From NCBI GenBank assembly GCA_010093745.1, contig MU005980.1, forward strand, positions 211,440-247,114: a stretch of DNA of 35,675 nucleotides. The letters are read 5' to 3'. This DNA is from Piedraia hortae CBS 480.64. Taxonomy: Eukaryota. Under the pieces are notes generated by a model. The model saw only the letters and a list, made by a program, of their open reading frames with translations. It made no database searches and was not told the origin of the DNA. Shown in pieces: positions 1,106 to 31,600 of the stretch (positions are counted from its first letter, which is position 1; each line of letters begins with the position of its first letter). The position numbers and the translations under genes were made by a program.

Positions 1106-3242
1106 ATGGCCAGGAGTCACAGCTCACGGCGAGCCGCATCCCCTTGGATGACGGTCTTCTATGTCTTTTCTCTCCTTCTGGCACCGATGCTCCTCGTGGG
1201 GCTCATACCCGCTGCACAGGCCGATGGTTCCAAAGAGTCGTCAGTGTCTGGTCCAGGTAAGTCTTGTCTAAGCTCACTGTAGTAAATCGCATCTTAATTT
1301 ATGGCAGTGATTGGCATTGATTTGGGCACAACATATTCGTGTGTAGGCATCATGAAGGGCGGCAAGGTTGAGATCCTTGTCAATGACCAAGGCAACCGCA
1401 TCACACCGTCATGGGTGGCATGGAACGATGAAGAGCGTCTGGTCGGAGACGCGGCAAAGAATCAATACGCCTCTAATCCCCAGCGCACCGTCTTCGACAT
1501 CAAGCGTTTGATTGGCCGAAAATACGACGATAGGGATGTGCAAAAGGACATCAAGCACTTTCCGTTCAAGGTCATAAACAAGGGCGGCCAACCGCGGGTA
1601 AAAGTTGACGTCAAGGGCGAGGAGAAGACGTTCACGCCCGAAGAGGTTTCGTCTATGGTATTGGGCAAGATGAAGGAGGTTGCCGAGAACTATCTGAATG
1701 AAAAGGTCACCAACGCGGTCGTCACTGTGCCGGCCTACTTCAATGACGCTCAACGTGCGGCTACCAAGGACGCCGGAACCATTGCCGGCCTCAACGTCAT
1801 GCGCATTGTCAATGAGCCCACAGCCGCCGCTCTCGCCTACGGCCTCGACAAGTCGGACAAGGAGCGCCAAATCATCGTCTACGATCTTGGTGGTGGCACA
1901 TTCGATGTCTCGGTTTTGACAGTGGACCACGGTGTCTTTGAAGTTCAGGCGACGGCTGGCGACACTCATCTCGGCGGTGAAGACTTTGACCAGCGGGTTG
2001 TCGACTGGTTCGTCAAAAACTACAACAGCAAGCACGGTACAGACATCACCAAGAATCCCAAGACCATGGGCAAGCTCAAGCGCGAGGTTGAAAAGGCCAA
2101 GCGCACACTTTCCAGCCAAATGAGCGCCAAGATTGAGATCGAGGCCTTTCACGAGGGCAAGGACTTCTCTGAGACGCTCACTCGCGCCAAGTTTGAGGAG
2201 CTCAACAACGATCTCTTCAGGAAGACGCTGAAGCCCGTGGAGCAGGTGCTCAAAGACTCGAAGCTGAAAAAAAGCGACATTGACGATATCGTTTTGGTTG
2301 GTGGGTCTACTCGTATTCCCAAGGTTCAGGCCATGTTGGAGGATTACTTTGGCAAGAAGGCCAGCAAAGGAATCAATCCTGACGAGGCTGTTGCCTATGG
2401 TGCTGCCGTCCAGGGCGGTGTTTTGTCTGGCGAAGAAGAGGTAATTTCTGACCCTTTCGAGTCTTTGCGAGTTCTAACATCTGATGCAGGCCAAGGATCT
2501 TGTTCTTATGGACGTCAATCCGTTGACTCTTGGCATTGAAACTACAGGTGGAGTCATGACCCATCTGATCAAGCGTGGCACAACAATTCCCACGAAAAAG
2601 AGCCAGATCTTCTCTACGGCTGCCGATAACCAGCCCATTGTCCTCATTCAGGTCTTTGAAGGCGAGCGGTCTATGACAAAGGACAACAATCTTCTCGGCA
2701 AATTTGAGCTCTCCGGTATTCCGCCTGCGCCACGTGGCCAGCCCCAAATTGAAGTCACGTTCGAGCTAGATGCCAACGGCATCTTGCGTGTAAGCGCGGC
2801 CGATAAGGGCACTGGCAAGAGCGAATCTATCACCATCACCAACGACAAGGGCAGATTGAGCGCTGAGGAGATCGAGCGCATGGTTGCCGAGGCTGAGAAG
2901 TATGCGGAAGAAGACAAGGCTACTCGCGAGCGCATCGAGGCCCGCAATCACTTGGAGAACTACGCATTCAGCCTCAAGAACCAAGTCAATGACGCGGAAG
3001 GCCTTGGCGGCAAGATCGAGGAGGACGACAAGGAAGCTATTCTTGAGGCTGTCAAGGAAGCACAGGACTGGTTGGAGGAGAATGCGCAATCGGCTGACGC
3101 TGAGGCGTTTGAGGAACAGAAACAGAAGCTTTCTGATGTCGCACACCCAATCACCAGCAAACTGTATGGTGGCGGATCTAGCGGCGGTGCAGGGGGCATG
3201 CCTGACTGGGACGAGGAGCCGTCCAGCCATGATGAATTGTAG
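1106..3242 (+). CDS. KAR2: ER Hsp70 chaperone BiP, 678 aa; exons 1106-1256, 1308-2440, 2490-3242
   Basis: Signal peptide [39 protein letters not shown], Hsp70 motifs [21 protein letters not shown] and [11 protein letters not shown], and C-terminal HDEL. Introns GTAAGT..CAG (1257-1307) and GTAATT..CTAAC..CAG (2441-2489) join the ORFs in frame. Confidence 0.98.
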
Positions 3243-6621: not shown

Positions 6622-7179
6622 CTACTCCCCTGGAAACTTTCCGAAAATCCACTTGTAAGCAAGTGGGTCTTTTGCCATTTCCTCGTCAAACAAGTCTGCC
6701 CACAAGCCCTCCTTGTAAAAATCATATGGTAGCGTTCGTGCCTCGTGCGAATCGACCGCAACTGAATCTTTGGCAGGCTGCTGCGGCGACTGCACCGAAG
6801 TAGGAGAGGAGTGACGATTGCCCATGGTTGCTAGGAAGGCGTTGCGAGACATCTTGGTATCGCACCCCTGTTTGGTGGTGGGCACTTGACGGTATACCCC
6901 CGCGGCTTGCGCTTCGTGATAAGTGTTATACCCCTGATACCAACCGCGGGTATCCTCATTGATGGGAGTATAATTTGAGTTTCGGCGCCAATCGTTGGCA
7001 GGACGGGTGCCGGTGCTTGCGATGCTATTGGTGTCCTTGATTAAGTTGGCATGGGCCGCGCGGATCTCTTCATGAGTATTGTAGCCATGGTATCGGTCAC
7101 GAGCACTGGCATGAATCGGAGTGTAGGTCGAGCGGGAACGCCAATCACGACCTGGAGAGTAGCCGGGAGTGTTAGACAT
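6622..7179 (-). CDS. Hypothetical 185-aa protein with two tandem copies of the W..STY.PI....R..Y.GY.T..E motif
   Basis: First ATG at 7179. DWRSRSTYTPIHASARDRYHGYNTHEEIRAA and DWRRNSNYTPINEDTRGWYQGYNTYHEAQAAGVYR match each other and the neighbouring paralogs. C-terminal DPLAYKWIFGK matches EPDTYRWFYGK of 7579-8055. Protein-level conservation supports coding. Confidence 0.8.
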   Translation of the reverse strand: MSNTPGYSPGRDWRSRSTYTPIHASARDRYHGYNTHEEIRAAHANLIKDTNSIASTGTRPANDWRRNSNYTPINEDTRGWYQGYNTYHEAQAAGVYRQVPTTKQGCDTKMSRNAFLATMGNRHSSPTSVQSPQQPAKDSVAVDSHEARTLPYDFYKEGLWADLFDEEMAKDPLAYKWIFGKFPGE

Positions 7180-7578
7180 CTTGTTCGAAGGATTTAGATA
7201 GTCGTGGTGTGGAGTGTCCGAGAGGGAACGGGATGTGGGAAGTTGAAGGTTGAAGGGGAAACACATACTATATGAAGGGTGGAGGATCGAACTCTACTCA
7301 AGTGAGCCCTGGAGCCAGTGAAGCAACTTCGACATTATAGTTACCCGCAAAGTTTGCTTAGGTCACATGTGTGCAAACCCATTTTACACCTGAGTCTATC
7401 TGGCGGCACTTCATTTCACTTACAAGTAAACTTTTCTTTACTTGAGGGGAACTCCAGCTATAAGAACCAAACCCATCCTCCTCTCCTTGCAAAACTCTCC
7501 AAACCATCTTCCCCGACAACCTTCTAGCATCACCACAAAACACCACTTTAGCCACACTGCTCAACACGCTTATCCGTC

Positions 7579-8427: not shown

Positions 8428-9133
8428 TTAATCCCTCATAAACTCCACCAAGACGGGATAAACCAGCTCAAACGCCCTCAACAAAGATTCATGAATCTTC
8501 GACCCCGTAAGCACAACCTTCCCGTTCCCAAATAACATAACCGTCACCTTCGGCTCGAAGACATGATACACCAACCCCGGAAAGATCTCCGATTCGTAGA
8601 CACAAATCAGCGCATGTGTCCTCGCAAGAGCATCAAGATTCACCCCGAACCCGACATTACAGGAAGCAACAATGTTTTCAACCGCGTAATCCTCGAATCT
8701 CGCGTTGAATCCCGCTTTTTCGACCATGCGTGCGAATTTTAGCGTCGCAAGTCTGCTGGTCGCGAGGGAGTTAGTGCCCGTTACGATCATCTTGCCGGAG
8801 GAGAAGATATTCGCAGTACTCCGCGGGGACCGCATTCGCATTACCACTGCGTGAAAGCGTTTTGGGTTATATTCGGTGTTGTTAGCACGGAGGGCGAGTT
8901 CGTAGAGGTCGATAATCGTATCGAGGTTGACGCTAGAGACGACGTTTCTGGTTGGTGGAGTCAGAGATGGGAGGGTTAGTGAGACGGTGGACGTACTGAA
9001 TTTTTGGGATGGGGATAGATGTGGTTGGGTCAGTGGACGTTGTGGTGGGTTGAGTTACTTCGTCTTCCAGTGCGTCGTGGAACCGTCGTGCAGCGCGGGC
9101 GCTGGTGAGATTTGTCTGGCAGAGGCGGTGCAT
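8428..9133 (-). CDS. Divergent TATA-box-binding protein paralog (TBP-related factor), 218 aa; exons 9133-8997, 8947-8428
   Basis: A 49-nt intron GTACGT..CTAAC..CAG (8996-8948) joins PIPKIQ to NVVSSVNL...EYNPKRFHAVVMRMRSPRSTANIFSSGKMIVTG...ENIVASC...YESEIFPGLVY...LFGNGKVVLTG...AFELVYPVLVEF. This is a complete, gap-free two-repeat TBP core with no stops or frameshifts. Confidence 0.93.
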
Positions 9134-13791: not shown

Positions 13792-14988
13792 TCATCTAAA
13801 AACGCGTCTAATCAACCCCCCCTCCTCCTTCTTCCTCTCCTTAATTTTGCTCGTCTCCTTCGCCCTACTCGAATGATGGCTCTTCCCACTTTCCGAATGC
13901 ACCTTCTTGCTCTTCTCATCCTTATGTTTCTTCTTCTTTTTATCCTTCTTCAAATCCTTCTCAGTAAGAACCCCCTCACTAACCAGCGTCTTCGCAGCTT
14001 TCTGCGTGATGAACTCGCCCTCACCTGATCCGCCCTCCATATTAGGATCGAGAACGATCCCTCGTCTCCAGAGTTCGATTCCATCAAGCTCTTGCAGCTC
14101 TTCCGGCTCATCAGGGGCTTCGATCGTGTTGGAGGTGAAAGCTTCCACGGCGTTGGCCTTGGATTCTCGGATCTTCTTTACGATTTTGTATCCGCCGAGC
14201 ATGACGATTGTGATGCCGACGCCTGCACCAACGGCGATAGCGAACTGGGGGGATGCGAGTAAGGCGACGATAGCTGGGAAGGAGCTTTTGAGTGACATGA
14301 GGGCACCGGGAGCGAGTTTGCTTGCTAGAGTTGAGATTTCGGCGAGTGCGAGGCCAACGGCGGCGAGGGATTCGGGGTCTTTTTGGAGGTTGGTAATTGT
14401 TGTCGTTACACTGTGTGAGACACAGGAGAGCTCGTCGAGCATGACTTGTAGGGATGACATCTTCTCCCGGAGCATGACTTCGTTTTGGTGAGGTGTGGTT
14501 CCTACTGGGGGAGGGACGAATGGACCATAGGCTAATGCCATATCGACTTCTTCTTTAGTCTGCTTGGGCACAGCTGTGGCTGGCGCAGCGATGGTTGCTG
14601 TGTGGCGTCGCGTCAGCTCCCCACAGGGGCGGGAAGGGACGGAGGAGGCATTGTCGGGGGTAAAAGTCTCGGTATATCCCCTCTCTAAGACGGGCCGCGA
14701 GGTGCCAGATCCCCGCTGAGATCCAGATCCTCTTCGTGAAGCTGCGGCATCATGAGAGTGCTTCCGAAAGTGACTGCCCTCGCCTCTTGTGCTGCGTTTG
14801 TTGCTTTGCGATGCGGATTTCGCGGCTTCAATGCGCCGAATCTCGTCGACGCGTCGAAAGGCCTTGATCTCAGCTTTCTTTTCGTCGTAGGCTAGTTTAG
14901 CGTCCTTGAAGACGTTGACGAGATGCTTGGAGGTCTTGATAACCTTGCCGGATTGATTGACAATGGTTACTGTTTGGTTGAGGGGCAT
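13792..14988 (-). CDS. Fungal hypothetical protein, ~398 aa, with a hydrophobic segment and Lys-rich tail
   Basis: Long ORF. MPLNQTVTIVNQSGKVIKTSKHLVNVFKDAK N-terminus, central LAAVGLALAEIS...FPAIVALLASPQFAIAVGAGVGITIVMLGGYKIVKK block, and IELWRRGI. An alternative ATG lies at 15003. Confidence 0.85.
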   Translation of the reverse strand: MPLNQTVTIVNQSGKVIKTSKHLVNVFKDAKLAYDEKKAEIKAFRRVDEIRRIEAAKSASQSNKRSTRGEGSHFRKHSHDAAASRRGSGSQRGSGTSRPVLERGYTETFTPDNASSVPSRPCGELTRRHTATIAAPATAVPKQTKEEVDMALAYGPFVPPPVGTTPHQNEVMLREKMSSLQVMLDELSCVSHSVTTTITNLQKDPESLAAVGLALAEISTLASKLAPGALMSLKSSFPAIVALLASPQFAIAVGAGVGITIVMLGGYKIVKKIRESKANAVEAFTSNTIEAPDEPEELQELDGIELWRRGIVLDPNMEGGSGEGEFITQKAAKTLVSEGVLTEKDLKKDKKKKKHKDEKSKKVHSESGKSHHSSRAKETSKIKERKKEEGGLIRRVFR

Positions 14989-15482
14989 CGTCACACAATG
15001 CAAGGCGCAGTGTTTGATGCTCTTAATGGCTTTCTGGAGAACGAAGGAAGTGGGTTTTTTATTATGAGTGGAACAGGGTCACCGGACCCTTTGGGCATCT
15101 CTTCTCTTGATTATCTACCCAACCGACGCCTATTGGCCAGAACCAGCCACACACAGGTGAGCCACACACGGCCCCTGGAAGCCAAGCCATTTTCTGCATG
15201 GGTGGCTGAGCACATGGCGGATGACACGCGTCACCACCTGCTTTGGGCTTAGCGTGTCCGGTTGACATACGTCATCTGCACGCCTCACGCCATGACCCGT
15301 TGACATCAACCGTCACTGACACTGTTCTCCCAACGATCGATAGAGCGCATTCGTGGTCCATAAACCTGTAGAGAACAAATCTCCCATTTTTCGGATGTCC
15401 TGTCAGGCTGCCAATTCAACACCAAATTGTGTGCATTAGAGATTGGATTTTAGGTACAAAAATACCAGACAAACTCTCCGGT

Positions 15483-18400
15483 CTACGAAAGGTGAAAAGC
15501 ACCTTGACCTTCCTTGATCGCCACCCCAATTTTCTCTCGCAAAATCTCTAGGCTGCTGTAGTCTGGCATTTTCAGGTAATTGGCGCAAGTCATGACGCTT
15601 GGCAGGTAATCATCCGAAGTCAGGGGAGGTTCGCTGGGCTTGCAGACCACCGTAAACATGGGCGTCAGGGCTTTGAATCCTTGGAAATAGTCAGCTCAGC
15701 TCAATGAACTCTGACTCACGATACTCACCGCCGATAGGCAGCTTGGGGCTGCCAGTGACAAACTTCAAAAAGTCTCGGCGTTCCTGGGGCGTGTATTCGG
15801 ACATGACTTGCAACAAGTTGCGTACGCTCTTGCTGTCCAGGTTAAAACCGTGATCGGCCTTGATGGAATCGAGCAAAAGCTCCAAAGACCAGTCTTCTTC
15901 TGCCTTCCCAAACAACATGACCAGCTCGTCTGGAGTGAAGGCCTTCAACGCCGAAAAAGGAAAGACTTTGGAGAAGCCGCGTTTGAAAGCATCGGCTTGT
16001 TGCTTCACACCAGACCCCACTGTGACCTCAATGACTTTTTGCACATATAGGTCGATGTTGTCAATAGTGACATCCTTCGTTGCACCCCCAGGCACAAGCT
16101 CAATGTGCGGATAGCCCGGCAGTGTAAACTCTAGACCCAAATCTTCGATGGTAGCATCATGCACCCGGACATGTTTCAATTTAAGCTGCTTTTGCTGAGC
16201 AGAAAGTCGCTTGTCTTTGACGATTTCTTTTTTGATGACAATGTACTTGCTGAGCATTGCGAGAGACTGAGCCAAATCCGGGTCCACCGCGGCTACTGCG
16301 CGAAGTGACGGAGTCTCAGTACCGATCTTGAAGAAATAGGGATTGAAGTTCACATCGATGATGCGGGAATCAAGCATAGAACGCGCAACAAACCTGCCCA
16401 GTACCTTAAACATGTGCAGTACACGCTTTCCCTCCTCAGTTGTGGCCATTTTGGCCGTCATAGGCGCGGGGAAGAGACCGGTCTTACTGTAGGCATATTC
16501 GCTCGTGTTTGCCAGGCCGTTCGTGCGCCACATATTTGTCTTTTTGGCGCTGAATTCGTTGGAAACGGTAGAGTAGAATTCCAACGTGGGCCCTAGACCG
16601 GTACCGACCTCTCCAAAATACTCAACCTCAAGCACGCTTTGCAGATGACCGTAGAGCTCCATGACCTTGATAGCGGACTCTAGGATACGCTCTCGCTGAA
16701 TGCGCACCTTTTGGCGCTGTACCCTCGACAGTTGCAGTCTCTCCACACGAACACGCCTTGCCTCATTGTCCAGCTGAGAGCTCTGCCAACGTGCCATTGA
16801 ACGGCTGTACCCGAAAGAGGTGGACTGAAGGAGCAAGTGGCGAGTTTGAAAAGGGAAGAGAAAAGGGAACAGTCGGGTCAAATCCTCGATCCAGGTGGGA
16901 AGACACTGGCTAGCCACGATGAGAGGCTCGTCCAGCTGTCTATTAAGCTTCGCCGTCAGCTTAGTGTTGATAAACTGCGACTGGGCTTCTGCTTGAGATC
17001 CCGCAGTGTCCTTGAACTTGTGCAGTATGCTCATCAAGCGCAGGATGGTACACGTGAGCGGGTGTTTTTCAAGTGAAGTGGGAAGACCGGATTCGGTGTC
17101 GGATGAGCTTGCATTACTGGACGAGGCAACGCCCGGCGAGCTCGGCGGCGGACCTGGCGCCTTCTTGAACTGAATTGCATGTGTGGTGGTCCAGAAGTTG
17201 CGGGACGATACTTCAACATCCTGGCCAAAATGGCACGCCTTAAAAACTGTTGTATCGTTTGGAATCGGCCGACCATCAACACTAAACTCAATGTGCCAGT
17301 CTTGCGGCTCTGACTGCAGCGCCGAAGCGTAGCTCAGCTGTCGGGCTGGCGTCGGCGTGGCTTCCCGTGGGGAGGGTTGACGAGCAGCCGGGCGGCTCTG
17401 GCTCGAAGCAACTGTGGACGGTGTCTGGATGCGAGACCCATTGTCTGTACGAGCAGTGACTTTTCCGGAATTGCCGACCTCGACCGTGACGGCAGATGGA
17501 TCCGCAGAGTCCTGCTCCAGCCCACCGTCCTCCAGCTCGTCAACCAAAGCATCCAGATCGGCGTCCAAATCATCGTCATCGTCATCTTCCTCCTCGATTT
17601 GGGCTTCGTCGACACACTCAAGCGGCTCCTGCGACTCTTCTTCGTTTGCGGGTGGCGGCTGCGTGGAAGCACCAGCCTGGGACGACTGCCTACGCGACCT
17701 TCCCGGTCGACTGGAACCTTCTCTTGTCATCAATGGCCAATCATCGTCCGGCCTTGAAGTACTGGCCCTGCCGCCAAACGGATTGCCAGTATTTCCACCA
17801 GCAGGCGATTCAGTCGACCCAATTCTGCGGCTAGCGGCGGCGATGCTATAAGCCGCAGCCATCATACTATGTAAATGCTCGCGGCGTGCACTTCTAGGAC
17901 GCTCCATAGAGCTCATACGCGGTCGTAGATAGCTGTCCAAAGCTTTGAACGTGGCAACTGCATGAATGGACACAATGATATTGCGTAGATGGCTTGGAAT
18001 GCCGGAATTCTCATCAGCAACCAGTTTAATGCGCAGCTGCTTTGAAAGCATCATGGCCGCCGAACTGCGGCTACTATCCGCAGTGGGATGCTGGACGGTG
18101 AGAACTTCAAAGTGCTCCGCACGGCTCAGTAAGTCTTGCAACTTTGCCACAAAGATGCTGAATGGGGAAGCTGACGAGCTTCCTTTGGGCATAAATGCCT
18201 CCTTCAGGTCACCTTGGGCTTTGCTGGCCAGCTTCTCATCGTTCGTCTCAAAGATGGACAGCAACACATTCACGATGTTAGACGCCATCAACTCGTAACT
18301 GGTAATGCCCTCGAGGGCACTCCCGTCAAAATATCGCGCAAGACGTGCAAAGACATTTGGACCGCCTGTAGCAGTATCATCGCTGTACGCCTTTTGCAAA

Positions 18401-20679
18401 TCAGCGGCAAGACTCTGGAGGCTGTCGAGCACATGGGACGCCTTTTCACGCATCTTTGGAGAGCCCTCGTTTCCGTGCGTCGCGATAAATTTTTTAGCCC
18501 TCATCGTGATAACGTCGTCGGGAAGAGGAAAAGCTCGAAGCATAGCGGCCCTATAAGCGTGAATATCCTCATCCTCATCCTCATCGTCATGATTGTGATC
18601 GTCTTCTCCGCCGTACTCATTCCCAACATCTTCCCCGTCTTCGTCATCCTCGACTTCATCGCCCTCGCCCTGTTGAAGCGGACGTTCAGCCAGCTTAGCG
18701 ATCTCGGCCATGACACCCTCGCGGTAAAACTGCGGGCGGTAGATGGACTCTAGTCGCTTGAGCAGTAATTCGGCAGCTTGCAGAGCATAGGTAACCAATG
18801 AGGAATCCTCGTGTTGGGTGAGAATGGACGCCAAGTGGGACGCGTAAGGGACTCCACAAAGGGCTTCTTCTAAGATGTTACTGTCCAAGTTTGACAGCAT
18901 CTTGAGCTGAGCATCCAAAACCTTTTGGCGGACTCCTAGGTTCACAGTGCTGGTAAACGTGTACATGAGGGTGGGGAAGAGGATCACGGAAAAGCGTTTG
19001 ACTTCATCTGGACAGCCCTTGAGCAGTTCCAGCTTCTTCTCATTAGGCGCCTTTTTAGAACGAGTGGACATTGACACCGACGGTGGTCCGGACTGAGGCT
19101 TGGTTTGCAAGTCATCCAGAAAGATCAGATCGTCTCGGGCAATGGTCGGCAACACTTCGCAGATGACGTTTAGCGTCTCGTATATTTGCGCCTTGGGCGT
19201 GCGGATAACAGCTTGCATGATGATATTCTGGTCAATTTCGGACGCAATGTTATCCATGCCAGCGGGTGCAGAGACTCCGGTGAGAATCTGGTAGAGAGTA
19301 TCGACAACATTCATTTTCAGCAACTCGACAGACAAGCGAGGACTGGCACGAGCGCTGATCGAAAGCAGACGGAGAAACTGCGTGTGGATGGCGGGGCCAA
19401 TCATGTTGGTCGAGCCAGGCAGCAGGAGGCGGAGAACAGCCTGAAGCAGTTTGGCCCTGACCAGCTTTTCCAGCTTGTCTGGCGACGACTGGAAGCTGTC
19501 GACGATGCGGGATACGCACAGCGACGTCTGCTCCACAACTTTTTGGTCGCTGCCACCCAGTGTGTCCTCCAACGTGGGCATTACATCGAGCACGGCAGGG
19601 AAGTGCTCTTGCTGGAGGTTCCGGCAGCAGTTGGCTGCCGTCGTCACCGCCGTTCGCTGGGTGCTGGTGGCAAAGAAGTCAAGGTTGCCCAAACAGGCGC
19701 GCAGGCCGCCTTCCTTTACGATCGACGCCGGGAACTCAGTTGAGATCTTCTGCAGCGTTGTCAAAGCCTGCTCAGCGACATCGATGAACTGCATCTCCAG
19801 AAGCATGTTGCAGAGCACGGGCACAGCATTGCCGTAAACCACATTGACCGTTGCCGACGGAAGGGCCTCCATGAGGTTGCCCAGGCACCGGCAGGCAAGC
19901 AGCATCAGCTCGACATTGGCCTCTTGGAATGGGCTTGGCTGCATCAGCGCCACAAGCTGCTCGATAAACTGGTCCGAGGGGAAGTTTCCTGACAGAGCAT
20001 CTTCGTTAGTCATCAGTAGGGCCTCTGAAAGCTCTTGCAACGCCGCCATTTGCACCATTTGGTCATCGCTGGTCTTCAACTGCTCAAGCATGCCCCGGAA
20101 ACGTTGCGGGGACCCTGTCATAAGGTCTCCAAACATGCGGAAAGGGTTGTAGCGTCCAGGCCCGGCGAGGCTGTCGAGAAGACCACGGGAAAACGGGTCG
20201 ACATCTTCTTCAGACTCAGCATCTTCTTCTTCTTCGGGCCGGGGCGCCTCAGCCTCAGTGTCCCGCTGGCTTGCCTCCCGGTCGGCGTCTTTCATGGCCA
20301 CGTCCTGTGCTTTTTTGGCGGCCTTCTTGCTCTTACGCGACGCAGAGCCGGTTGTGGTGTTGGCGACATCTGTATTGCCCGACTTCCGGCGGCTGGATTT
20401 CCTCCGCGACGAGCTCTGAGGACTCTGCTGCGGAGTTGCGTCGCGGGCAGACGACGGCGCTGACATGTCGGTGGCCCTGGACTTACCCCGCGTCCTCTCC
20501 GCTTCGGCGTCTCCCCTAACCCTCTTGCTCCGCCGACTCGGCTGTGCGGGGGTGGGCGACTCGGCTGTGGCCTTCCTCTTCCGCGAGGCTGGCGGCGAGG
20601 TAGGAGCGGTTGAGGACGACGGGCGGCTATCGGATTCGGCACGAAGTCTCGCTGCTGAGCGAGTTACTCTAGGGGACAT
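15483..20679 (-). CDS. UFD4: HECT E3 ubiquitin ligase Ufd4/TRIP12 family, ~1715 aa; exons 20679-15729, 15679-15483
   Basis: ARM region ([23 protein letters not shown]), [16 protein letters not shown], and a HECT domain ([26 protein letters not shown]). A 49-nt intron GTGAGT..CTGAC..AAG adds [12 protein letters not shown]...[17 protein letters not shown]...GQGAFHLS* with the catalytic Cys. Confidence 0.96.
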
Positions 20680-21256
20680 CTGTGAGCCGCAGTGCTCGCT
20701 ATGATGGCGGCCACAGCCTCACAAAGAGTGGCTGTATATGTGGGATGTGGTGGGAGTGTGTGCACGGGTCATGCGGATAAGGTGGTGTGTGAGGCGGAGG
20801 GAGGCGGAGGTGGGTGATGCGTGGCGATAAGAGGGGTGGAGCGAAGGTGGGGTGTTTGGGGAAAGGAGGGTGTTAGGCGTGTGTACCTATGAAGTGGGTA
20901 TGAAGCAGGTATGATGTATGAGGCAGGAGAGGTAGGAGGGGCAAGGCAGCGTACGACGTGACAGAGGAACAGTGGGCAAAAAGGAGCAGCTACTTGCCTC
21001 TTAAAGTCGCTTCTGTCACTGCGGTGTGTTGTTCCGCTCATGAACGTCGTCGTGGTGAATGATGACTCAGAGACTTGCGGCTGCTTTGTGCGACGCGTGA
21101 ACGCTACCTGAAACTGGACGCGATTGTGAGGCATCCACCATTGTTATGGATAAGACGGTCACTCTGATCAAACGCGCTTACAATCGAGGTCCCTAAGACA
21201 GGCCGTCACCTTTGACTCATGGCATAGCTGCCACCGCCGAGCAATTGAACATAGAA

Positions 21257-21988
21257 CTAAGCTTTCCATTCGGTCCTCCCCAACTTGACAATATCCGCCT
21301 GGTTCAGAATCTGCACCTTCTCCACTGACTTTCCTTCCACACAGTCCAGCGCGGCTCTAACCGCCGCTTTGGCGATGGTGTCGGCGCTTTGAGCCCAAGG
21401 ATCCGTACACCCTAAACCGCCAAGCCCACCCACCAGCCCCGCCAGCTTCTTTAGCGCAGACTCTGCAAATCTAGCATCACTTCGCTCGCCCAGTATGAGG
21501 CCCGGCCTTACGATGACTGCATGATCAAAGTCCAGAGCCCTAACTGCGTCTTCCAGCTCCCCCTTCATCTTGGGGTATGCGAAGAACGAACTTGAGCTGG
21601 CCCCCTGCGACGAAATGAGCACATATATCTTTGTTCCCGCTGCTTTGGCGGCTCGCGCCAACTCCAAATTCAGCCCATAATCGATCTTCTTCTGGTTCTC
21701 AGTGCTACCTGCCTGGGCACGCGTTGTCCCCAACGCCGAGAGAAAAACCTGCGTGGCAGGGCACTTTCCTGCCCAGGCATCCGAATCAGCTGAGACGATG
21801 TTGGTCGTCTTGGGCTTGGCAGGAAGATCCCTCCGCGAGAACGCGTAAATCGAGCTGACGCTCGGGAGATCTTGAAGCGTGGAAAGGATACGAGATCCCT
21901 AGCACCACATCAGCAAATCCACTTGACGAAGGAGCATCATGACACGAACAACCAATCCTGTACTGCCTACGACACATGCTGTTGCCAT
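21257..21988 (-). CDS. FMP52: Fmp52/HTATIP2-like NAD(P)-binding protein, 226 aa; exons 21988-21950, 21898-21257
   Basis: Spliced N-terminus MATACVVGSTGLV-GSRIL (GxTGLVG Rossmann motif). Also SALGTTRAQAGS, KIDYGLN, YPKMKGELE and RPGLILGER. Intron GTTCGT..CTGAT..TAG. Confidence 0.92.
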
Positions 21989-22430
21989 CTTGTCTGAGAC
22001 CGGCAGCAGCTGATAAGCCCCGCTGTGACGTTGTCTGGATTAGTAATCAAGAATGTGCCATCCAACGAATGAGATCGACAACCGAGGGAAGAGATGCCGC
22101 TTGATTATGCATGGCAATTTCATTTGCAGAAACTAACGGCACGAAGAGTCCTGCCGAAGAAAAATGTCGGCGCTGAGTGACTTGACGAGGGTTGCGAGCA
22201 TCTTTGATCTGGATGATGATCCACTCCCGCTCATGCCTCAACATCTGGAAGTGCTCCAAAATACGTCACGTGATGCACAATGTATCCGCCCTATGTCGAT
22301 GGATAGAATCTACACGACGTAATAGGTATTTTCTCAAGGCATTGGTCGCTTGGTGCAAGATAGCATATTCTATGGAAATGGAAAAGGCAAAGGCAAAGTG
22401 AGCAGCAGGCGGCTCCGATGCTTGTCCAAT

Positions 22431-23495
22431 TCAGGGCCCGCCAGTCCCTGCAGTAACGGAGCTTACTGCAGGGGCTGGCACGGTTTCAACGTTATTAGAT
22501 GTAATCTTCCCGCCATCTATCGTCTGTGTATCTTGTTGCGTTCCACTGCAAACGACGTACTTTGGCTTGGGTTCGGATTCAGTCGGACTTCCGTGAGTAG
22601 GGGTAACAGCCAGTTCTTCAAGAACCATCTGTGTCGAGGCAGCAAGGTTCATGGTGTAAAAGTGCAGGTGTTTCGTCACACCGCTGTTCAGAAGCTTGCG
22701 GCAAAACCCTGCTATGAGGTCCTTACCTGCCTCGCGGACAGCGGCATCATCACCCTTGATGGGCTCAAGTTTCTCCAACCATTCGGGTGGAATCCGGGCA
22801 TTGGTCCACTTGGCCCTTCTTAGGAAACTGTCAAAATTCTGGATGGGCATGATGCCTGGAATAATGGGAACGTGATCAGGTATTCCAGATTCTCGCACCT
22901 TTCTTGCCCATGTAATGAAGCGTTCCGCATCATAGCACATCTGCGTGACAATAAAAGTCCCGCCCGCGTCAATCTTCTCTTTCAGATAAGGAATGTGGGC
23001 GTCGGCGGTCGTGCCATCATCGCAGCCTTCGGGATAGCCAGCGACCCCAATATCAAAGTAGTCATCATACTTGCTTTTGATAAATTTTATCAGATCTCGA
23101 GCATAGCGAAAGGCAGTGGAGTCTGTTTGCTCCCATGAGTCCTTTTCCTTGGGCGGATCGCCGCGGAGGGCGAGGATGTTGGTACAGCCAGCTTCATACG
23201 CTTTCTGCAGAGCATCTGTAATCATTTCTATGCCCATATCGGTGCAGGTTAGATGCATACACGTCTCGAGGCCATACTCGGACTGCGCTACCTTCACCAT
23301 TTCACAGGTCAGGCTGCTACCGCTACCGCCTGCTCCCCAGGTGATGTCAATGAATGCTGGCCCAAGGCTGTTCATGCGACCCATGCGCGCATAAAGATTC
23401 TGCACGCCTTGGGGTGTCTTGGGTGGAAAGTACTCGAACGAATATGTCGGGTGGCCATCGGCGTGAGACGCCGCCAGTTTTTGGGTAATGTGCAT
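22431..23495 (-). CDS. Methylenetetrahydrofolate reductase, catalytic domain only (~320-354 aa)
   Basis: SFEYFPPKT, FIDITWGAGG, ETCMHLTCT, NILALRGDPP, IGVAGYPEG, FIVTQM, PIIPGIMPI and LHFYTMN motifs. A possible late intron at 22560-22517 would end the protein KWREDYI* at 22495. Confidence 0.93.
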   Translation of the reverse strand: MHITQKLAASHADGHPTYSFEYFPPKTPQGVQNLYARMGRMNSLGPAFIDITWGAGGSGSSLTCEMVKVAQSEYGLETCMHLTCTDMGIEMITDALQKAYEAGCTNILALRGDPPKEKDSWEQTDSTAFRYARDLIKFIKSKYDDYFDIGVAGYPEGCDDGTTADAHIPYLKEKIDAGGTFIVTQMCYDAERFITWARKVRESGIPDHVPIIPGIMPIQNFDSFLRRAKWTNARIPPEWLEKLEPIKGDDAAVREAGKDLIAGFCRKLLNSGVTKHLHFYTMNLAASTQMVLEELAVTPTHGSPTESEPKPKYVVCSGTQQDTQTIDGGKITSNNVETVPAPAVSSVTAGTGGP

Positions 23496-23875
23496 GATGT
23501 GTGTTGGTTCAACAGCACAGTATTAGTCGTGTCTATCGTCTATTCATAATCCGGGGCGAAACAGCCTGGTGTTGCAGCGATTGCTAGGATGAGGTTTTGT
23601 TCTGGGAAAAAAGCCGCGGCGGGGAAAAACGTCATTGCCTAAAGCGGCTAGAGCGGATTGGCCCAAACCACTGCATCAGAATCGGCTACCTGACATTCGA
23701 GGTCATTTAATAGTGGCAGAACAAGAGATTTCGTGACATCGAGGTAGTGAGTTGAGAAAACTAGCTGCAATTGCGGAAAGAATCAGAGAATCTGCAAATC
23801 AAGCTGTGTCTCCCAGTGAAACTCGCGACGTCTCATGCAGAACCAAGCCAGTCCGACATTGAAGCACCAGAAGCC

Positions 23876-24424
23876 ATGCTAAATGCCAAAGCCCTAACTG
23901 AGTTGCTGTCGAAGAACAGCGATGAAAAACTATACAGGCGTTGGTGGCTTACAACAGCCAATGGAACGTTGTTAGCTTACAATGTGCCTGCAGATCTGAG
24001 AAGTTTGCGTAAGCAAGTGGCCGCAGCAGTCATGTTGTGGCAAGACCATCACCTTGAAAGTGATGCAAGCCAGACAAATCGTCAGGCACCAACAATGATA
24101 ATATTATCGGAAGATTGCAATGTACTCGTGAGAGAAATTGAAGACGACCTCTTGCTCGGACTTGAAGCAGGAGTTCCTCTTCGAAATCGTGGATTCAAGA
24201 CCCGAATTATAATAGAAAGCCAGGATGGTAACCGGTTACACAAGAGCAACACCGCATCAGATGTTTTGGGCACGTCAACGGCCTCGACAGCTAATAGCAC
24301 AATTAGTGTTGCCACCAGTGGGGTTTTGAGTCTGCATAAGAAAAAGTTTGATGCCATGGCCGCTGCCATGCTAGACCGGTTTGAAGAAATCGGTTTCAAG
24401 CTACCAGAAATGCAATATTTCTGA
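23876..24424 (+). CDS. Roadblock/LAMTOR2-like protein (putative Ragulator/EGO subunit), 182 aa
   Basis: First ATG at 23876. MLNAKALTELLSKN...LTTANGTLLAY resembles the recalled LAMTOR2 start MLRPKALTQVLSQAN...LLNNEGSLLAY. The C-terminal GVLSLHKKKFDAMAAAM resembles the GMLKAKAQAL helix. Confidence 0.65.
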   Translation: MLNAKALTELLSKNSDEKLYRRWWLTTANGTLLAYNVPADLRSLRKQVAAAVMLWQDHHLESDASQTNRQAPTMIILSEDCNVLVREIEDDLLLGLEAGVPLRNRGFKTRIIIESQDGNRLHKSNTASDVLGTSTASTANSTISVATSGVLSLHKKKFDAMAAAMLDRFEEIGFKLPEMQYF

Positions 24425-24801
24425 TCACGTGCTTTTGGCAAGGAAGATACTAATGAGGTATGACAACTTGTTGTGCCTCTCGAAGACTGCTATACGGTCC
24501 AAAGTGGCCAGTCTTTGAGTATCATCATTTACCTTGACCTTGACGAGGCTGACGTAGAAAACAGGCACCATATTATGGGGCTATCTTCCAGCCAATTTAC
24601 GCGAGATGTGTTTCCTTTCTTCTTCCATCATCACTGGGACACATCCATCGCAACTACGTGGCCTCGGCTTCCACTGCTACTCATGACGTCGACCATGACG
24701 GCTCTATGCTACCCCGCAGCGGGGAAACTGTTTCGGAGCGGGCCGTCTAAACTTAATATACACCAATATGGACTTCGAGGACGAGGGGAACTGCTTCAGT
24801 C

Positions 24802-26283
24802 ATGGTGGCTATCCGTGTAACTGTGTCCCCTGCCCAGCGAGCTGTCAAACTGCTTCGTGCAGTCAACAGCGGGACCTCATCATGTCCCTGCCATGGAAAT
24901 TCTCGTCACCACCACCCATGTCACCACGCGCATCCATTTGGAGGTAGGGTTCGGTCTCTGGCAACTCCTGTCAATACCTCTAGTGGCAAAGAGTATGCGT
25001 TCGAAATGGCCGCAAGTAGCATCCGTTTTGGTCCTGGTTGCACCCAAGAAGTGGGCATGGACCTGACCAATCTCGGTGCTAAGAAAGTGATGGTAGTTAC
25101 AGATGAGATGGTGATGAAGCTAAATGCCATGAAGCAGGCAGTGGAAGCATTGGATAAAGAAGGTATTTCCTATGAGGTCTTTACCAAATCCAGAATTGAG
25201 CCAAAGGACTACAGCATCAAAGAAGCCGTAGAATTCGCGAAGCCTCACCAACCTGATGCGTTCTTGGCAGTGGGGGGCGGCAGTGTCATCGACACAGCCA
25301 AGCTAATGAATTTATACACAACGTTCCCGGAAGCCGATTTCCTCGACTTTGTCAACGCGCCTCTGGGTAAAGGCAAGCCAATAACGGCCAAACTTAAGCC
25401 TTTGATCGCCGTACCCACGACAGCAGGGACGGGCTCAGAAACTACAGGAACTGCCATATTCGATTTAGTTGATAAGAAGGCTAAAACAGGTATCGCCCAT
25501 CGCAACCTCAAGCCGACATTGGGCATTTGCGACCCTCTTAATACTCGTACAATGCCGTCCTCAGTACACGCTTCCTCGGGTCTAGATGTCCTTTGCCACT
25601 CTCTGGAATCCTGGACGGCTATTCCATACAATGAGCGTACCCCAAGGCCGGCAAACCCCATCCTCCGCCCAGCCTACCAGGGCGCCAATCCCATTTCAGA
25701 CATATTCTCTTTACAAGCCCTCCGCAGCACCGTCAAGTACCTGCCCCGAGCAGTCAAAGATCCAGACGATGCCGAAGCGCAGTCTGAAATGCTACTTGCC
25801 GCTACATTAGCAGGCGTTGGATTTGGTAACGCCGGCGTTCACTTGTGTCATGGCATGTCATATCCAATCTCGTCCCAGAATCCTGGCTACCAACATGCTG
25901 GGTATCAGGTCGATTACCCCATCATTCCGCATGGTGTCTCCGTAGCTGTCACAGCGCCCGCGGTATTCAAGTTCACTGGCCCTTCAAACCCTGAGAGACA
26001 TCTAGCTGCGGCGGAGGCGTTTGGGGTTGACATTTCCAACGTGAAGAAGGCCAGCGCGGGTGAAGTTTTGTCAGAGGCCGTGGCGGGGTTTCTGGTCAAA
26101 CTTGGAGATCAGCCTCGAGGATTGAAGCCCTTGGGATTCGACAAAAGTCACATTGATGGCCTGGTTGAAGGAACGATGCCACAGGCAAGAGTTCTGGCCT
26201 TGGCGCCGAATCTGACCATGAGTGATGTTAATGAAGAGAGAGAACAGTTGAGAGATTTGTTTGAGCAATCGCTGGAATATTAA
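24802..26283 (+). CDS. ADHFE1: Mitochondrial hydroxyacid-oxoacid transhydrogenase (ADHFE1/HOT, Fe-ADH family), 493 aa
   Basis: EYAFEMAASSIRFGPG, AVGGGSVIDTAK, VPTTAGTGSETT, RPAYQGANPISD, GFGNAGVHLCHGMSYPI and PHGVSV motifs, with a basic presequence-like N-terminus. Intronless. Confidence 0.95.
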   Translation: MVAIRVTVSPAQRAVKLLRAVNSGTSSCPCHGNSRHHHPCHHAHPFGGRVRSLATPVNTSSGKEYAFEMAASSIRFGPGCTQEVGMDLTNLGAKKVMVVTDEMVMKLNAMKQAVEALDKEGISYEVFTKSRIEPKDYSIKEAVEFAKPHQPDAFLAVGGGSVIDTAKLMNLYTTFPEADFLDFVNAPLGKGKPITAKLKPLIAVPTTAGTGSETTGTAIFDLVDKKAKTGIAHRNLKPTLGICDPLNTRTMPSSVHASSGLDVLCHSLESWTAIPYNERTPRPANPILRPAYQGANPISDIFSLQALRSTVKYLPRAVKDPDDAEAQSEMLLAATLAGVGFGNAGVHLCHGMSYPISSQNPGYQHAGYQVDYPIIPHGVSVAVTAPAVFKFTGPSNPERHLAAAEAFGVDISNVKKASAGEVLSEAVAGFLVKLGDQPRGLKPLGFDKSHIDGLVEGTMPQARVLALAPNLTMSDVNEEREQLRDLFEQSLEY

Positions 26284-26292
26284 ATTGGGAAG

Positions 26293-27111
26293 TTAGTCGT
26301 TGCTGTTAAGGTCCCAATCGTGGAATGGGTCATCGCTGTTGTCGTCTACATCTTGATCTTCATCTTGTTTATCATCTTCCACTTCCGCTTTCTCATCGAC
26401 CTCAACTTCTTTGGACTTCATCAATTTCGCCCTTCTTTCCTTCAGTTTCTTCACCCTCAAATCCAAGATTTCCATTGTGTCCAATTCCTCCTCAATCGCT
26501 CTCAACGCATCTTCTCGCTCTCCCTCAATGTCCAAATCAGTCTTTGTGCGCTGCTGACTCTGCTCTTCCGTTGCTTTCGCAGCGATTTCTTCAGCCGACA
26601 ACGGTTTTGCGGAGATGGTTGCTTCCACATCGAGCGCTGTCTTGTCTTGATGGTCCTCCATCAAAGCGAGTTCAGCCTCGAACGCCGCCAATTCCTCCGC
26701 CTGCATTGGACCTTCATCAGCCTCTCGGGGCTGGGCAGTTTGCTGGGGTAGCTCTTTCAGGACTTCCTCCTCGACGTTGTCCCCCCAGGGCGGCGAGGCC
26801 TTGACTCTCTTCTGCTCTACATGGGCAACTTCTGGCGACGAGATTTCCAGTTTCCGCTTCTTCTTTACCGGCGACAGATCCCTGTCGCGGACTTCGTGTT
26901 TGGCCTCTGTTGTGGGGGGGTTGAGTTCGACCGACTGATGTTTGAGATGAGCTGCAGAGTGGAGGTGCGCTTTCCATGATGTTGACGGTACGGGAGCTGC
27001 ACAAACGGTGCAGTGGAGCTTCCCGTCCGCTGTGTAGATTGCATTTGGGTGGACTATGCGGCGATTATTATGCTCAGCGCGGAGAAGAGAGCGCACGTCT
27101 GTGGCCGCCAT
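26293..27111 (-). CDS. ZNF830/CCDC16-like zinc-finger protein, ~272 aa
   Basis: MAATDVRSLLRAE..RRIVHPNAIYTADGKLHCTVC...WKAHLHSAAH (U1/matrin-type C2H2), TISAKPLSAEE, a coiled coil and an acidic tail ending DW. Confidence 0.8.
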   Translation of the reverse strand: MAATDVRSLLRAEHNNRRIVHPNAIYTADGKLHCTVCAAPVPSTSWKAHLHSAAHLKHQSVELNPPTTEAKHEVRDRDLSPVKKKRKLEISSPEVAHVEQKRVKASPPWGDNVEEEVLKELPQQTAQPREADEGPMQAEELAAFEAELALMEDHQDKTALDVEATISAKPLSAEEIAAKATEEQSQQRTKTDLDIEGEREDALRAIEEELDTMEILDLRVKKLKERRAKLMKSKEVEVDEKAEVEDDKQDEDQDVDDNSDDPFHDWDLNSND

Positions 27112-27277
27112 TGAAAGACGCGGTTCGGTACACGCGGTGTTGTGTTGCAATTGGGGGTAGTAGATTACAGGGTGTTACCGTTTCCGTTACAATACTACCG
27201 ACTCCATGACGTCATTGGACGGAAGAAGTTCAGCAGGGATACAAATACACGTCTATCCACACATTACCACTGTATCA

Positions 27278-28671: not shown

Positions 28672-31600
28672 ATGCGCTCTTGGTGCTGGACTTCGGCCTT
28701 TTGCCTGCTACTGGCTCATGCCCGAGTAGCTCGCCCAGAAGACTCGTCTTCTGATAGCTCCAGCTGCTTACGGCGCTTGTTCCGGAAGCAAGCAGCTGAA
28801 CAGTCTTGGGTCGAGGATGTCTACTATAATTTCGTCCACAATACCTCTGTTGGCTAGACACTTTGCAAGCAAATGTTCAATTACCCTGATAAAACCGTCA
28901 CCGTCGAAGTCACACCAACTAGGCAAGTGTCTGCTACCTTCAGTAAATCTAGCCGTTAACAGTTGGCCAGCACTGAATACAACGTATATTCCACGCGGGT
29001 TGTTACTGTGCTATTCGTTAGCACCGATTCCAGTACCACGATAACGGCGACTGTGACTCCTACTCAAAGCGCTAAACGTCAAACAGATGAAGGTTTCGAC
29101 TTTTGGGAGAAGCTTAAAATCCAAGCCGCCAATGCCGGGCTACCCGCTCCCGATGACTCCCTGGTTAAGACTGCATTTGAGAATGCATGTCAATGCCAAA
29201 GTTTCGCTGGGAACACAGTCACTTCTACTTTCACGGATGACTCTACAGTGGCAACTCTGGATGAGTTCGATGTTACCACGACTACCTATGTTGCTACTAG
29301 TACGGCCCTTTCTGGAGTTGCTGAGGTTACAGCCACGGTAGATGCTTCTGCTTCTGCGGACCCTGAAACCGCGGTCTCGCAGGGGACAGCTACCACTACT
29401 AGCGCGCCTGATGCTGCAACCCCAGTTGCCCCAGCCCTTGCCTGTCCAGCAGATAACAACACGATTGTGAGTCAGTTGGTCGGGAATCAGCGATACGGCT
29501 ACCTCATCTTGTGTGATAGTGAGCTGACGTCTCCTGTCTGCAGGGGAGTTTTGTACAATGCTGGCGAGCAATCGAATAACTGTATCCTCAATGATGAAGC
29601 CGATGCAACTGAAGCTGCTGGTTCGAACGTTGCTCTTCTCCAAAGAATTGCAGTAGGTATCAATGGCAACACGCCGACAACAATAACACCTGCAATCGGC
29701 ACTCCGACATCTGACGCTGCCCAAGTCAGCTCTTCACTCGATTCGATCTTGATCAGCAAGTCGGAGACTATTCCCATGACTACCCTTGTGCCGGTAACTG
29801 TGACTCAGTCCGGCATGATTCATTCGACTTACGTTTCTGAGGGCACAACGTATTTTGTTGGCACCTGCTTCACTTCTGCCACACCTTTTGCTGATGGCCC
29901 ATGATACTCTACCTACTACACGTCCTATACGTTGTATTGGGCATCAACCACCACTGAGTATGTGATCACCCCAATGTCAACCGGCGCGACCAACTACGCC
30001 ACTTACTCCCCAAATGGCACTATCACCATCACTCAGATTATGACCAACGAGTCCTATATTTAGGGCGGTGAAGAGATCGCTTCTTCTGCCACGATGAATT
30101 ACTTCAGCTACGAGACTGGCTCGAGTGGCGCTGCTAGTGGGGGTCCCTCTCAGGCGTATGCTTCTATCACGCCCGAGTTATCAGCGACCACAATTACCAA
30201 TATCGGTGGAACTGGTGTAGTTGCCTCCGGCGCTGCATCAGGCAGCCCCTCACTTGGCTCAGAACTTCAACTACTGTAATGACTCTAAGCGGCGGTGTTG
30301 GATTCGGATCTTTCGGTGCTGCATCTGGTGGACTAACAGTCAACACATCCACGACTGCTGCGACCATGGTCGGTGGAACTGCCTTTGTCTATTTCGGAGC
30401 AGCATCTTGCGGCCCAAGTACCAGTATTTCCAACACCGTCATTCCAGGATCGAGTGGCATCGAGGTTATCTCCAGCGATGCTGTCTCTGGAGGCTCTTCG
30501 GCGACGACTTCCAGGACTGCAATTACAGTGAGTGGTGGTACTGTTGTGGTGTCCAGTGGAGCTGCATCTGGAGGCCCCACTCCAGAGACCTCGTCCACGG
30601 TGATTATTAACTCCGGCGACACGGCCTTCAGCACTGGCTCTGCTGCCTCAGGAGGCCCAAGCTCGTCTACGTTGCAAACTTCTGTTTCCCCCGGCGGGGC
30701 CAAATTTTCGAACACAGGCGCCCCTCGATCAGGCCTTGACACATCTGTTCCCACCTCTGATCCGAGTCCTTCATCACCGAGCAATGCGTTCTCGGACACC
30801 GGTGCGCCCCGCTCTGGTCTACTTGAGAAATCTTCGAGCACGATATCTTACGGACCATTCCCTAGCCAGCCTTCGCCTTCTCCGATTACCTCTAGCGACA
30901 CATTCCCCAACTCAGGTGCGCCTCGCTCTGGACAACCCGAGGAGTCACTCAGCACCACTTCTTCCGGGCCATCGACTTCCTCCGTAGTGTCTTCTACTTC
31001 TCTTGATACGTTTACCGACTTCGGTGCTCCCCTTTCCGGAGTCCTTGCTGAGACTTCGAGCACCACCGCAAGTAGCTCATCTCTCAGCACCATTCCCTAT
31101 GAGCCATTCACTTCTTCGGCAGCATCCTCCAGTCCTTTCAATAAATTCACCAACTCTGGTGTTCCTCGTTCCGGATTTCCTGATGAGACTTCAAGCACAA
31201 CCTCGAGTGGCCTATCAGCACCATTACATACGTGCCGTCGACAACAGGGAGCCCCACTCCGTCGAGCTCTAGCAACACATTCAATAATACAGGTGCACCT
31301 CGCTCTGGGCAACCTGGGGAATCCTCCAACAATATCCCAGACAACGTTTTCTTTTCCAGCCCTGCCACCACTGGCCCCTCATCTCTCAGCAAAAATCCAT
31401 ACGTGCCTTCTGAGTCAGAGACTCCGACTCACTCTAGCTCCAACACTTTCACCAACTCTGGATCGCCTCGTTCTGGATTCCCCGAGGAGTCTCTGAGCAC
31501 AATCCCCTTTGGCCACTTAGCTCCTCGCCAGTGTCCTCCAGCTCCGTGGATATCTTCACCAGTTCCAACGCTCCTTTCACTTCGCTATCCGCATTTCCAA

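Follow-up and report, generated by a model that had tools for sequence, protein, structure and literature searches.

The window analysed here, a stretch of 35,675 nucleotides from contig MU005980.1 of Piedraia hortae CBS 480.64 (positions 211,440 to 247,114 of the forward strand), contains on its minus strand a gene for a divergent second TATA-binding protein (TBP) which, judged by its sequence and at about even odds (a probability of roughly 0.5), is a lineage-restricted TBP-related factor that has been kept under constraint and that combines a modified DNA preference with a modified use of cofactors for a subset of promoters. Few eukaryotic proteins are as conserved as TBP, and within this one genome the branch leading to the canonical P. 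hortae core measures 0.026 changes per site, that leading to the paralog about 1.

The coding region of the paralog (8428..9133, minus strand) consists of two exons separated by a single intron and comprises 218 codons plus stop. Exon 1 (8997..9133, 137 nt) runs from the start ATG (9133-9131), 5' of which an in-frame stop is found, to the second base of the codon for Gln46, the equivalent of Q68 in yeast TBP, and encodes an N-terminal tail that is unrelated to the tail of canonical TBP. The intron (8948..8996, 49 nt) has a GTACGT 5' site, an ACTAAC branch-like motif and a CAG 3' site, and exon 2 (8947..8431) ends at the stop codon TAA (8430..8428). The spliced product of 218 residues is letter for letter the annotated protein P0002 of the same strain, deposited as 'eukaryotic TATA box binding transcription initiation factor TFIID-1 [Piedraia hortae CBS 480.64]'; the gene is intact and its annotation as a member of the TBP family already exists in the database. 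The preliminary description had placed the protein at 8500-8860, a range that holds the residues of interest except N69, which lies just outside, and that is shorter than the gene (8428-9133). Sequencing reads that hold the locus come from a single DNA run, which was probably used for the assembly; no RNA run is listed, which is a blank and not a sign of silence.

The window has the appearance of an ordinary fungal chromosome. An Hsp70 gene (1298-3239, plus strand) is read in two overlapping open frames (1298..2539 and 2478..3242) whose matches to Pfam positions 1-381 and 380-598 join, so that the two frames are probably linked near 2478-2539 by a short intron or a change of frame. A 1675-residue open frame (15694-20718, minus strand) encodes a Ufd4/TRIP12-type E3 ubiquitin ligase in which a HECT domain is combined with TRIP12-like TPR repeats, and a housekeeping run (21260-27174) contains genes for a HIM1-like/NAD-binding protein (21260-21898, minus strand), MTHFR (22434-23522, minus strand) and an iron-containing alcohol dehydrogenase (24757-26280, plus strand). 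The long open frames at 6625-7293 and 13795-15078 (both minus strand) and at 28960-29901 and 30138-31493 (both plus strand) are without Pfam match. A secondary-metabolite cluster or another cluster setting was considered and rejected, as the adjoining genes are housekeeping genes. Horizontal transfer was likewise set aside, since GC3 of the paralog gene (0.63) is like that of its neighbours (0.52-0.64), the intron is fungal-looking and the path lengths in the trees are nearest to fungal canonical TBPs.

The family assignment is clear. The protein matches the Pfam TBP model PF00352 in two stretches (E 2.6e-36, 123.8 bits at a cut-off of 22.9), and residues 1-170 of its 172-residue core (P0001; 8431-8946, minus strand) align without gaps to residues 69-238 of full-length yeast TBP (chain 1rm1_A); the core also gives gapless full-length matches to 35 PDB TBP sequences, and no gap is needed in the alignment with any eukaryotic TBP chain of the PDB. 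Yeast numbers used in the following are the core index plus 68, and yeast letters are those of the 1rm1_A alignment. Repeat 1 (8686..8947, yeast 68-155) carries N69, F99, H100, R105, N114, F116, I122 and T124, and repeat 2 (8431..8685, yeast 156-240) carries E158, N159, the C-terminal stirrup, F190, P191, V194, H196, E199, T203, M205, F207 and N209, all on the minus strand. The preliminary description had listed eight residues as retained and six as substituted and had proposed a formal alignment to yeast TBP as a check; this alignment, followed codon by codon, confirms all 14. Retained are the four intercalating phenylalanines F99 (8854-8856), F116 (8803-8805), F190 (8581-8583) and F207 (8530-8532), the asparagines N69 (8944-8946) and N159 (8674-8676) and the TFIIB-stirrup acids E186 (8593-8595) and E188 (8587-8589). 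Substituted are A100H (8851-8853), L114N (8809-8811, codon AAT), I194V (8569-8571), R196H (8563-8565), V203T (8542-8544) and L205M (8536-8538), of which L114N is, among those that affect listed base contacts, the most radical. The last four belong, together with E199, to a block in strands S2'-S3' of repeat 2 (8536..8571) that includes positions 194, 203 and 205, those changed in the engineered mutant TBPm3, and the stirrup itself reads E186-S187-E188-I189 (8584..8595) where canonical TBP has E-P-E-L.

The designation as a paralog is borne out by a canonical TBP in the same strain. This protein (P0391, 258 residues), deposited as 'TBP-domain-containing protein [Piedraia hortae CBS 480.64]', was found by a protein search with the canonical TBP of Friedmanniomyces (P0206) and is encoded on another contig, 190 kb long. 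Other Pezizomycotina have cores nearly identical to that of P0391; at yeast position 231 it has His, where the paralog and the other TBPs compared have Tyr. Paralog and canonical copy are 51% identical over 176 gapless residues and differ at 83 of 170 core positions, and in both trees described below the end branch is 0.026-0.027 changes per site for P0391 and 0.84-1.16 for the paralog. With about 51% identity to canonical cores and P0391 present beside it, the paralog does not belong to the canonical, orthologous fungal TBPs.

Is such a divergent copy still a working TBP? A non-redundant set of 122 cores, in which all pairs are less than 80% identical, was drawn from 399 near-full-length cores among 454 fetched proteins. 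In the 50 columns of this set with a consensus of at least 85% the paralog keeps the consensus residue 44 times, as compared to 53 of 122 in the other columns (hypergeometric p 2.7e-8), and because this retention is beyond chance the paralog is, as far as column conservation tells, a protein with a history of TBP-like constraint. The six exceptions are L114N, V122I, F155Y, P187S, R196H and L205M, three of which (114, 196 and 205) had been named in the preliminary description. The long end branch of the paralog also fits relaxed selection, and it is possible, albeit on the unlikely side, that the gene is a redundant or decaying duplicate that was released from constraint and drifts without a distinct promoter specificity, in which case the copy may be weakly functional or recently dead. 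A terminal branch some 30-45 times longer than that of the canonical copy, changes at 83 of 170 core positions, unique or rare substitutions such as P187S and L114N and cluster and HMMER protein searches that found no ortholog agree with decay, whereas the open frame of 218 codons with its consensus-like splice signals, the 44 of 50 conserved columns kept, the preferential retention of base-contact residues and a fold predicted with high confidence do not. Moreover, of the 101 Dothideomycetes for which figures are given in PMC7082219, none has a smaller genome (16.95 Mb) or fewer genes (7572) than P. hortae, and since the gene was retained in so strongly reduced a genome, a function is supported and decay is argued against.

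An AlphaFold2 model of the paralog has a mean pLDDT of 89.3 with 173 residues at 90 or above, and only the N-terminal tail is of low confidence (about 51-61). Superposition of the model on chains of TBP-DNA complexes, a comparison suggested in the preliminary description, gave TM scores (target) of 0.93-0.95 and an rmsd of 1.3-1.4 Å over 177-178 columns, indicating that the protein folds, as predicted, into the TBP saddle.

How much of the DNA-reading face is altered? Table 1 of PMC12529657 gives 16 base-contact residues for yeast TBP, eight in the first half (N69, V71, F99, A101, L114, F116, V122 and T124) and eight in the second (N159, V161, F190, P191, L205, F207, V213 and T215). By this table 13 of 16 are identical in the paralog, the changed ones being L114N, V122I and L205M. 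Because only 3 of 16 contacts are changed as compared to 80 of 154 positions elsewhere in the core (Fisher p 0.016), the DNA-reading face is, on these residue counts, the best-kept part of the protein and not a part that was selectively changed.

The individual substitutions differ widely in how common they are. Among the 454 fetched TBP-family proteins, a set that is biased to hits of the queries used and in which the paralog is counted twice, H100 is found in 15, V194 in 54, T203 in 28 and N209 in 36, H196 in 8 and N114 and M205 in 5 each, with L114 in 435. Six further proteins (P0003, P0041, P0021, P0322, P0330 and P0332) combine H100, V194 and N209, with T203 in addition in P0041 and P0021, and V194 and T203 co-occur in several unrelated divergent TBPs. 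Since they recur in this way, V194, T203 and H100 are, by these counts, no special signature of the paralog; N114, H196, M205 and E158 are essentially private to it within the group sharing H100, V194 and N209. The preliminary description had drawn a parallel to TBPm3, for which it had given the composition I194F, V203T and L205V, in agreement with the introduction of PMC1636458. The same three positions are indeed changed in the paralog and V203T is identical, but position 194 is V and not F and position 205 is M and not V, so that one of the three TBPm3 residues is present and the analogy is thin. The proposal built on it, a natural TBP of altered specificity, holds insofar as there is a real extra TBP with altered DNA-facing positions that include the symmetric pair L114/L205 and R196; it is weakened by the fact that base contacts are the best-kept residues and that V194, T203 and H100 recur elsewhere. 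Arndt and colleagues reportedly found in 1994 that L114F and L205F in yeast TBP alter how the TATA element is recognised at its two ends.

Larger changes are found outside the base contacts, and the altered stirrup proline, the fall in charge and the heavy remodelling of the helices had all been absent from the preliminary description. The H2 and H2' surfaces of TBP carry many partner contacts, and in the paralog 10 of 17 residues of helix H2 and 9 of 17 of H2' (about 55%) are replaced. The N-terminal stirrup is largely kept. In the C-terminal stirrup E186 and E188 are retained and P187S, L189I and K199E are changed; serine between the two TFIIB-stirrup acids occurs in none of the 122 non-redundant cores, and P187S may impair TFIIB binding. 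The claim that the protein still recruits TFIIB therefore retains the two acids in its favour and becomes less safe through the three substitutions in the same stirrup. The net charge of the core is +2; that of P0391 is +11, and in nine further divergent TBP-like proteins from fungi it lies between +7 and +12. Twelve basic residues are lost (R79, K83, R90, K127, R137, K156, K167, R171, R196, K199, which became Glu, R220 and R238) and three are gained, a loss that would be in line with a decaying duplicate as well. L114N makes a hydrophobic base contact polar. R196H and the lower net charge (+2 instead of +11) could weaken rather than retune DNA binding.

How could a lineage-restricted, constrained TBP-related factor of this kind act? 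With Phe 99, 116, 190 and 207 and Asn 69 and 159 all in place, the residues associated with DNA kinking by TBP are complete, and the protein would still engage AT-rich DNA through its minor groove and kink it. L114N, V122I and L205M, together with the nearby changes R196H, V203T, I194V and A100H, probably shift or relax the sequence preference, and they would do so at both ends of the 8-bp site, while the loss of nine net positive charges probably lowers the general affinity for DNA. As the N-terminal stirrup and E186/E188 are kept, TFIIA-like contacts and contacts with TFIIB-family proteins are plausible; P187S, L189I, K199E and the replacement of about 55% of the residues in H2 and H2' suggest that cofactors and regulators are used differently. 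The most likely role would be initiation at a subset of promoters or under some conditions, with P0391 serving general transcription beside it.

A more far-reaching proposal is that the paralog is a working TBP of altered preference, a low-charge, DNA-kinking protein with a rebuilt cofactor surface that reads a non-canonical element, and that it belongs to an undescribed set of fungal TBP-related proteins that runs a dedicated class of promoters; such a set would join the Piedraia paralog with the lineages of P0003 and P0041. N114 would then read the downstream half of the core element and V194, H196, T203 and M205 the upstream half. This proposal is unlikely. Quite unlikely is a role as competitor or decoy, in which a TBP-like protein that binds DNA poorly or non-productively acts as a regulator instead of an initiation factor, by titrating TFIIA, TFIIB-family proteins or other TBP partners or by occupying promoters without initiation. 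The largely kept N-terminal stirrup and E186/E188 would suit such a protein, as would the net charge of only +2, R196H and L114N, but a pure protein decoy would have no need of the complete sets of intercalating Phe and central Asn or of the 13 base contacts out of 16 that the paralog keeps, and H2 and H2' surfaces of which about 55% is replaced are not what a competitor for TBP partners would be expected to have. That the paralog is a natural TBPm3-like protein reading TGTAAA-type elements through positions 194, 203 and 205 is very improbable, for although V203T is the TBPm3 change itself and 194 and 205 are both altered, V instead of F and M instead of V are conservative replacements, V194 and T203 are found in 54 and 28 of 454 TBP-family proteins and both occur together in several unrelated divergent TBPs.

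The closest relatives of the paralog are two metagenome proteins, P0003 (58% identity) and P0008 (55%), followed by canonical TBPs at about 51%. A word-index protein search of 5.8 billion clusters gave no relative of more than 58% identity, and an exhaustive HMMER search of 1.84 billion representatives none of more than 54%. P0003 has 24 of its 59 derived states in common with the paralog, the highest share seen, and is encoded by an intronless gene on a metagenome contig (L001:3484-4320). A metagenome scan with P0003 yielded six loci, its own contig and five weak matches; the latter (contigs L002-L006) are TBP-like and match parts of the P0003 core at 27-47% identity. In two trees with rows hand-picked from the 454 fetched proteins, a quick one of 60 rows and a careful one of 41 rows, the paralog stands in a polytomy, and monophyly with P0003/P0008 or with the P0041 clade was not recovered; this clade itself (P0041, P0021, P0322, P0330 and P0332) is well supported (100/95 in the careful tree). 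Approximately unbiased (AU) tests rejected neither a sister relation to the canonical TBP of the same strain (p-AU 0.121), nor grouping with P0003 and P0008 (p-AU 0.314), nor grouping with all seven other rows of the H100 type (p-AU 0.343). The gene could have arisen by recent duplication in the Piedraia lineage or could belong, heavily altered, to an older family of fungal paralogs.

Other divergent fungal TBP-like proteins stand beside canonical TBPs, namely the P0041 clade, P0059 from Tothia fuscella with P0044, and P0003/P0008. From the sequences compared, TBP paralogs seem to be recurrent in fungi. The available portions of PMC7221094, PMC3597702, PMC5415576 and bioRxiv 10.1101/2025.10.03.680374 describe such paralogs in animals only and none in fungi; Supplementary Data 9 of PMC7221094, as referred to in its text, holds paralog counts per species and may include fungi. 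Five plant entries of 305-420 residues (P0100-P0104) score about double in TBP searches. P0100 has two matched stretches and P0104 three, and the entries are probably tandem TBP genes that were merged in annotation.

The paralog is unusual in its fungal setting and in its low-charge saddle. If the paralog is a constrained extra TBP, it would provide a natural experiment on the saddle residues that set DNA preference, a view of how far cofactor surfaces can drift, and a simple fungal system for promoter-class-specific initiation. Should the proposed altered-preference set of fungal proteins be real, it would put an end to the view that only animals have TBP paralogs with jobs of their own; a gene that merely drifts as a duplicate would be an ordinary curiosity of a gene family.

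With canonical TBP, as represented by yeast Spt15 and P0391, the protein has two PF00352 repeats, a gapless core and the predicted saddle in common. Kept from canonical TBP are the four intercalating Phe, N69 and N159, R98, R105, T112, T124 and T215, and furthermore V71, V161, V213, P191 and E186/E188. Unlike canonical TBP it has L114N, R196H, L205M, P187S, V122I and F155Y at highly conserved columns, and it differs from P0391 by an identity of only 51%, by a net charge of +2 instead of +11 and by its unrelated N-terminal tail. The divergent fungal and metagenome proteins P0003, P0041 (from Podospora aff. communis), P0021, P0322, P0330 and P0332 resemble it in H100, V194 and N209, and P0041 and P0021 also in T203; these proteins, together with P0008, P0059 and P0044, are at most 58% identical to it and, unlike the paralog, retain leucine at 114 and 205, have R or K at 196 and bear a net charge between +7 and +12. 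With TBPm3 it shares the three altered positions and V203T, but V194 and M205 are conservative and are accompanied by 80 further core changes.

Among the TBP-related factors of animals, TRF1 and TRF3 keep the intercalating Phe and can bind the TATA box, as stated in the available text of PMC10005294, which is a precedent for the favoured reading of the paralog, and TRF1 and TRF3/TBPL2 are, like the putative factor considered here, extra Phe-keeping TBPs for subsets of genes (PMC10005294; bioRxiv 10.1101/2025.10.03.680374, in the parts available). They are insect or vertebrate families and the paralog is fungal; the likeness does not imply common descent. TRF2/TLF/TBPL1 is likewise a divergent TBP paralog, but TRF2 has lost an intercalating Phe and is without TATA binding according to the same text of PMC10005294, and TBPL1 has, in its N-terminal lobe, Trp in place of a universally conserved Phe according to that of PMC7221094, whereas in the Piedraia paralog no intercalating Phe is lost or replaced. 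The TRF2-like proteins P0358 and P0346 (N99, W116, H190) carry N or S at position 114, comparable to N114 of the paralog. A further analogy is offered by the TBP mimic ORF24 of KSHV, which according to the available text of PMC12529657 keeps the Phe, has the polar residues Ser at the equivalents of L114 and L205 and Asn at that of V122, and reads a non-canonical TATTWAA element. The likeness is an analogy only, since ORF24 is viral, has an extra C-terminal DNA-binding domain, is without the TFIIB acids that the paralog retains, and is related to it by fold only.
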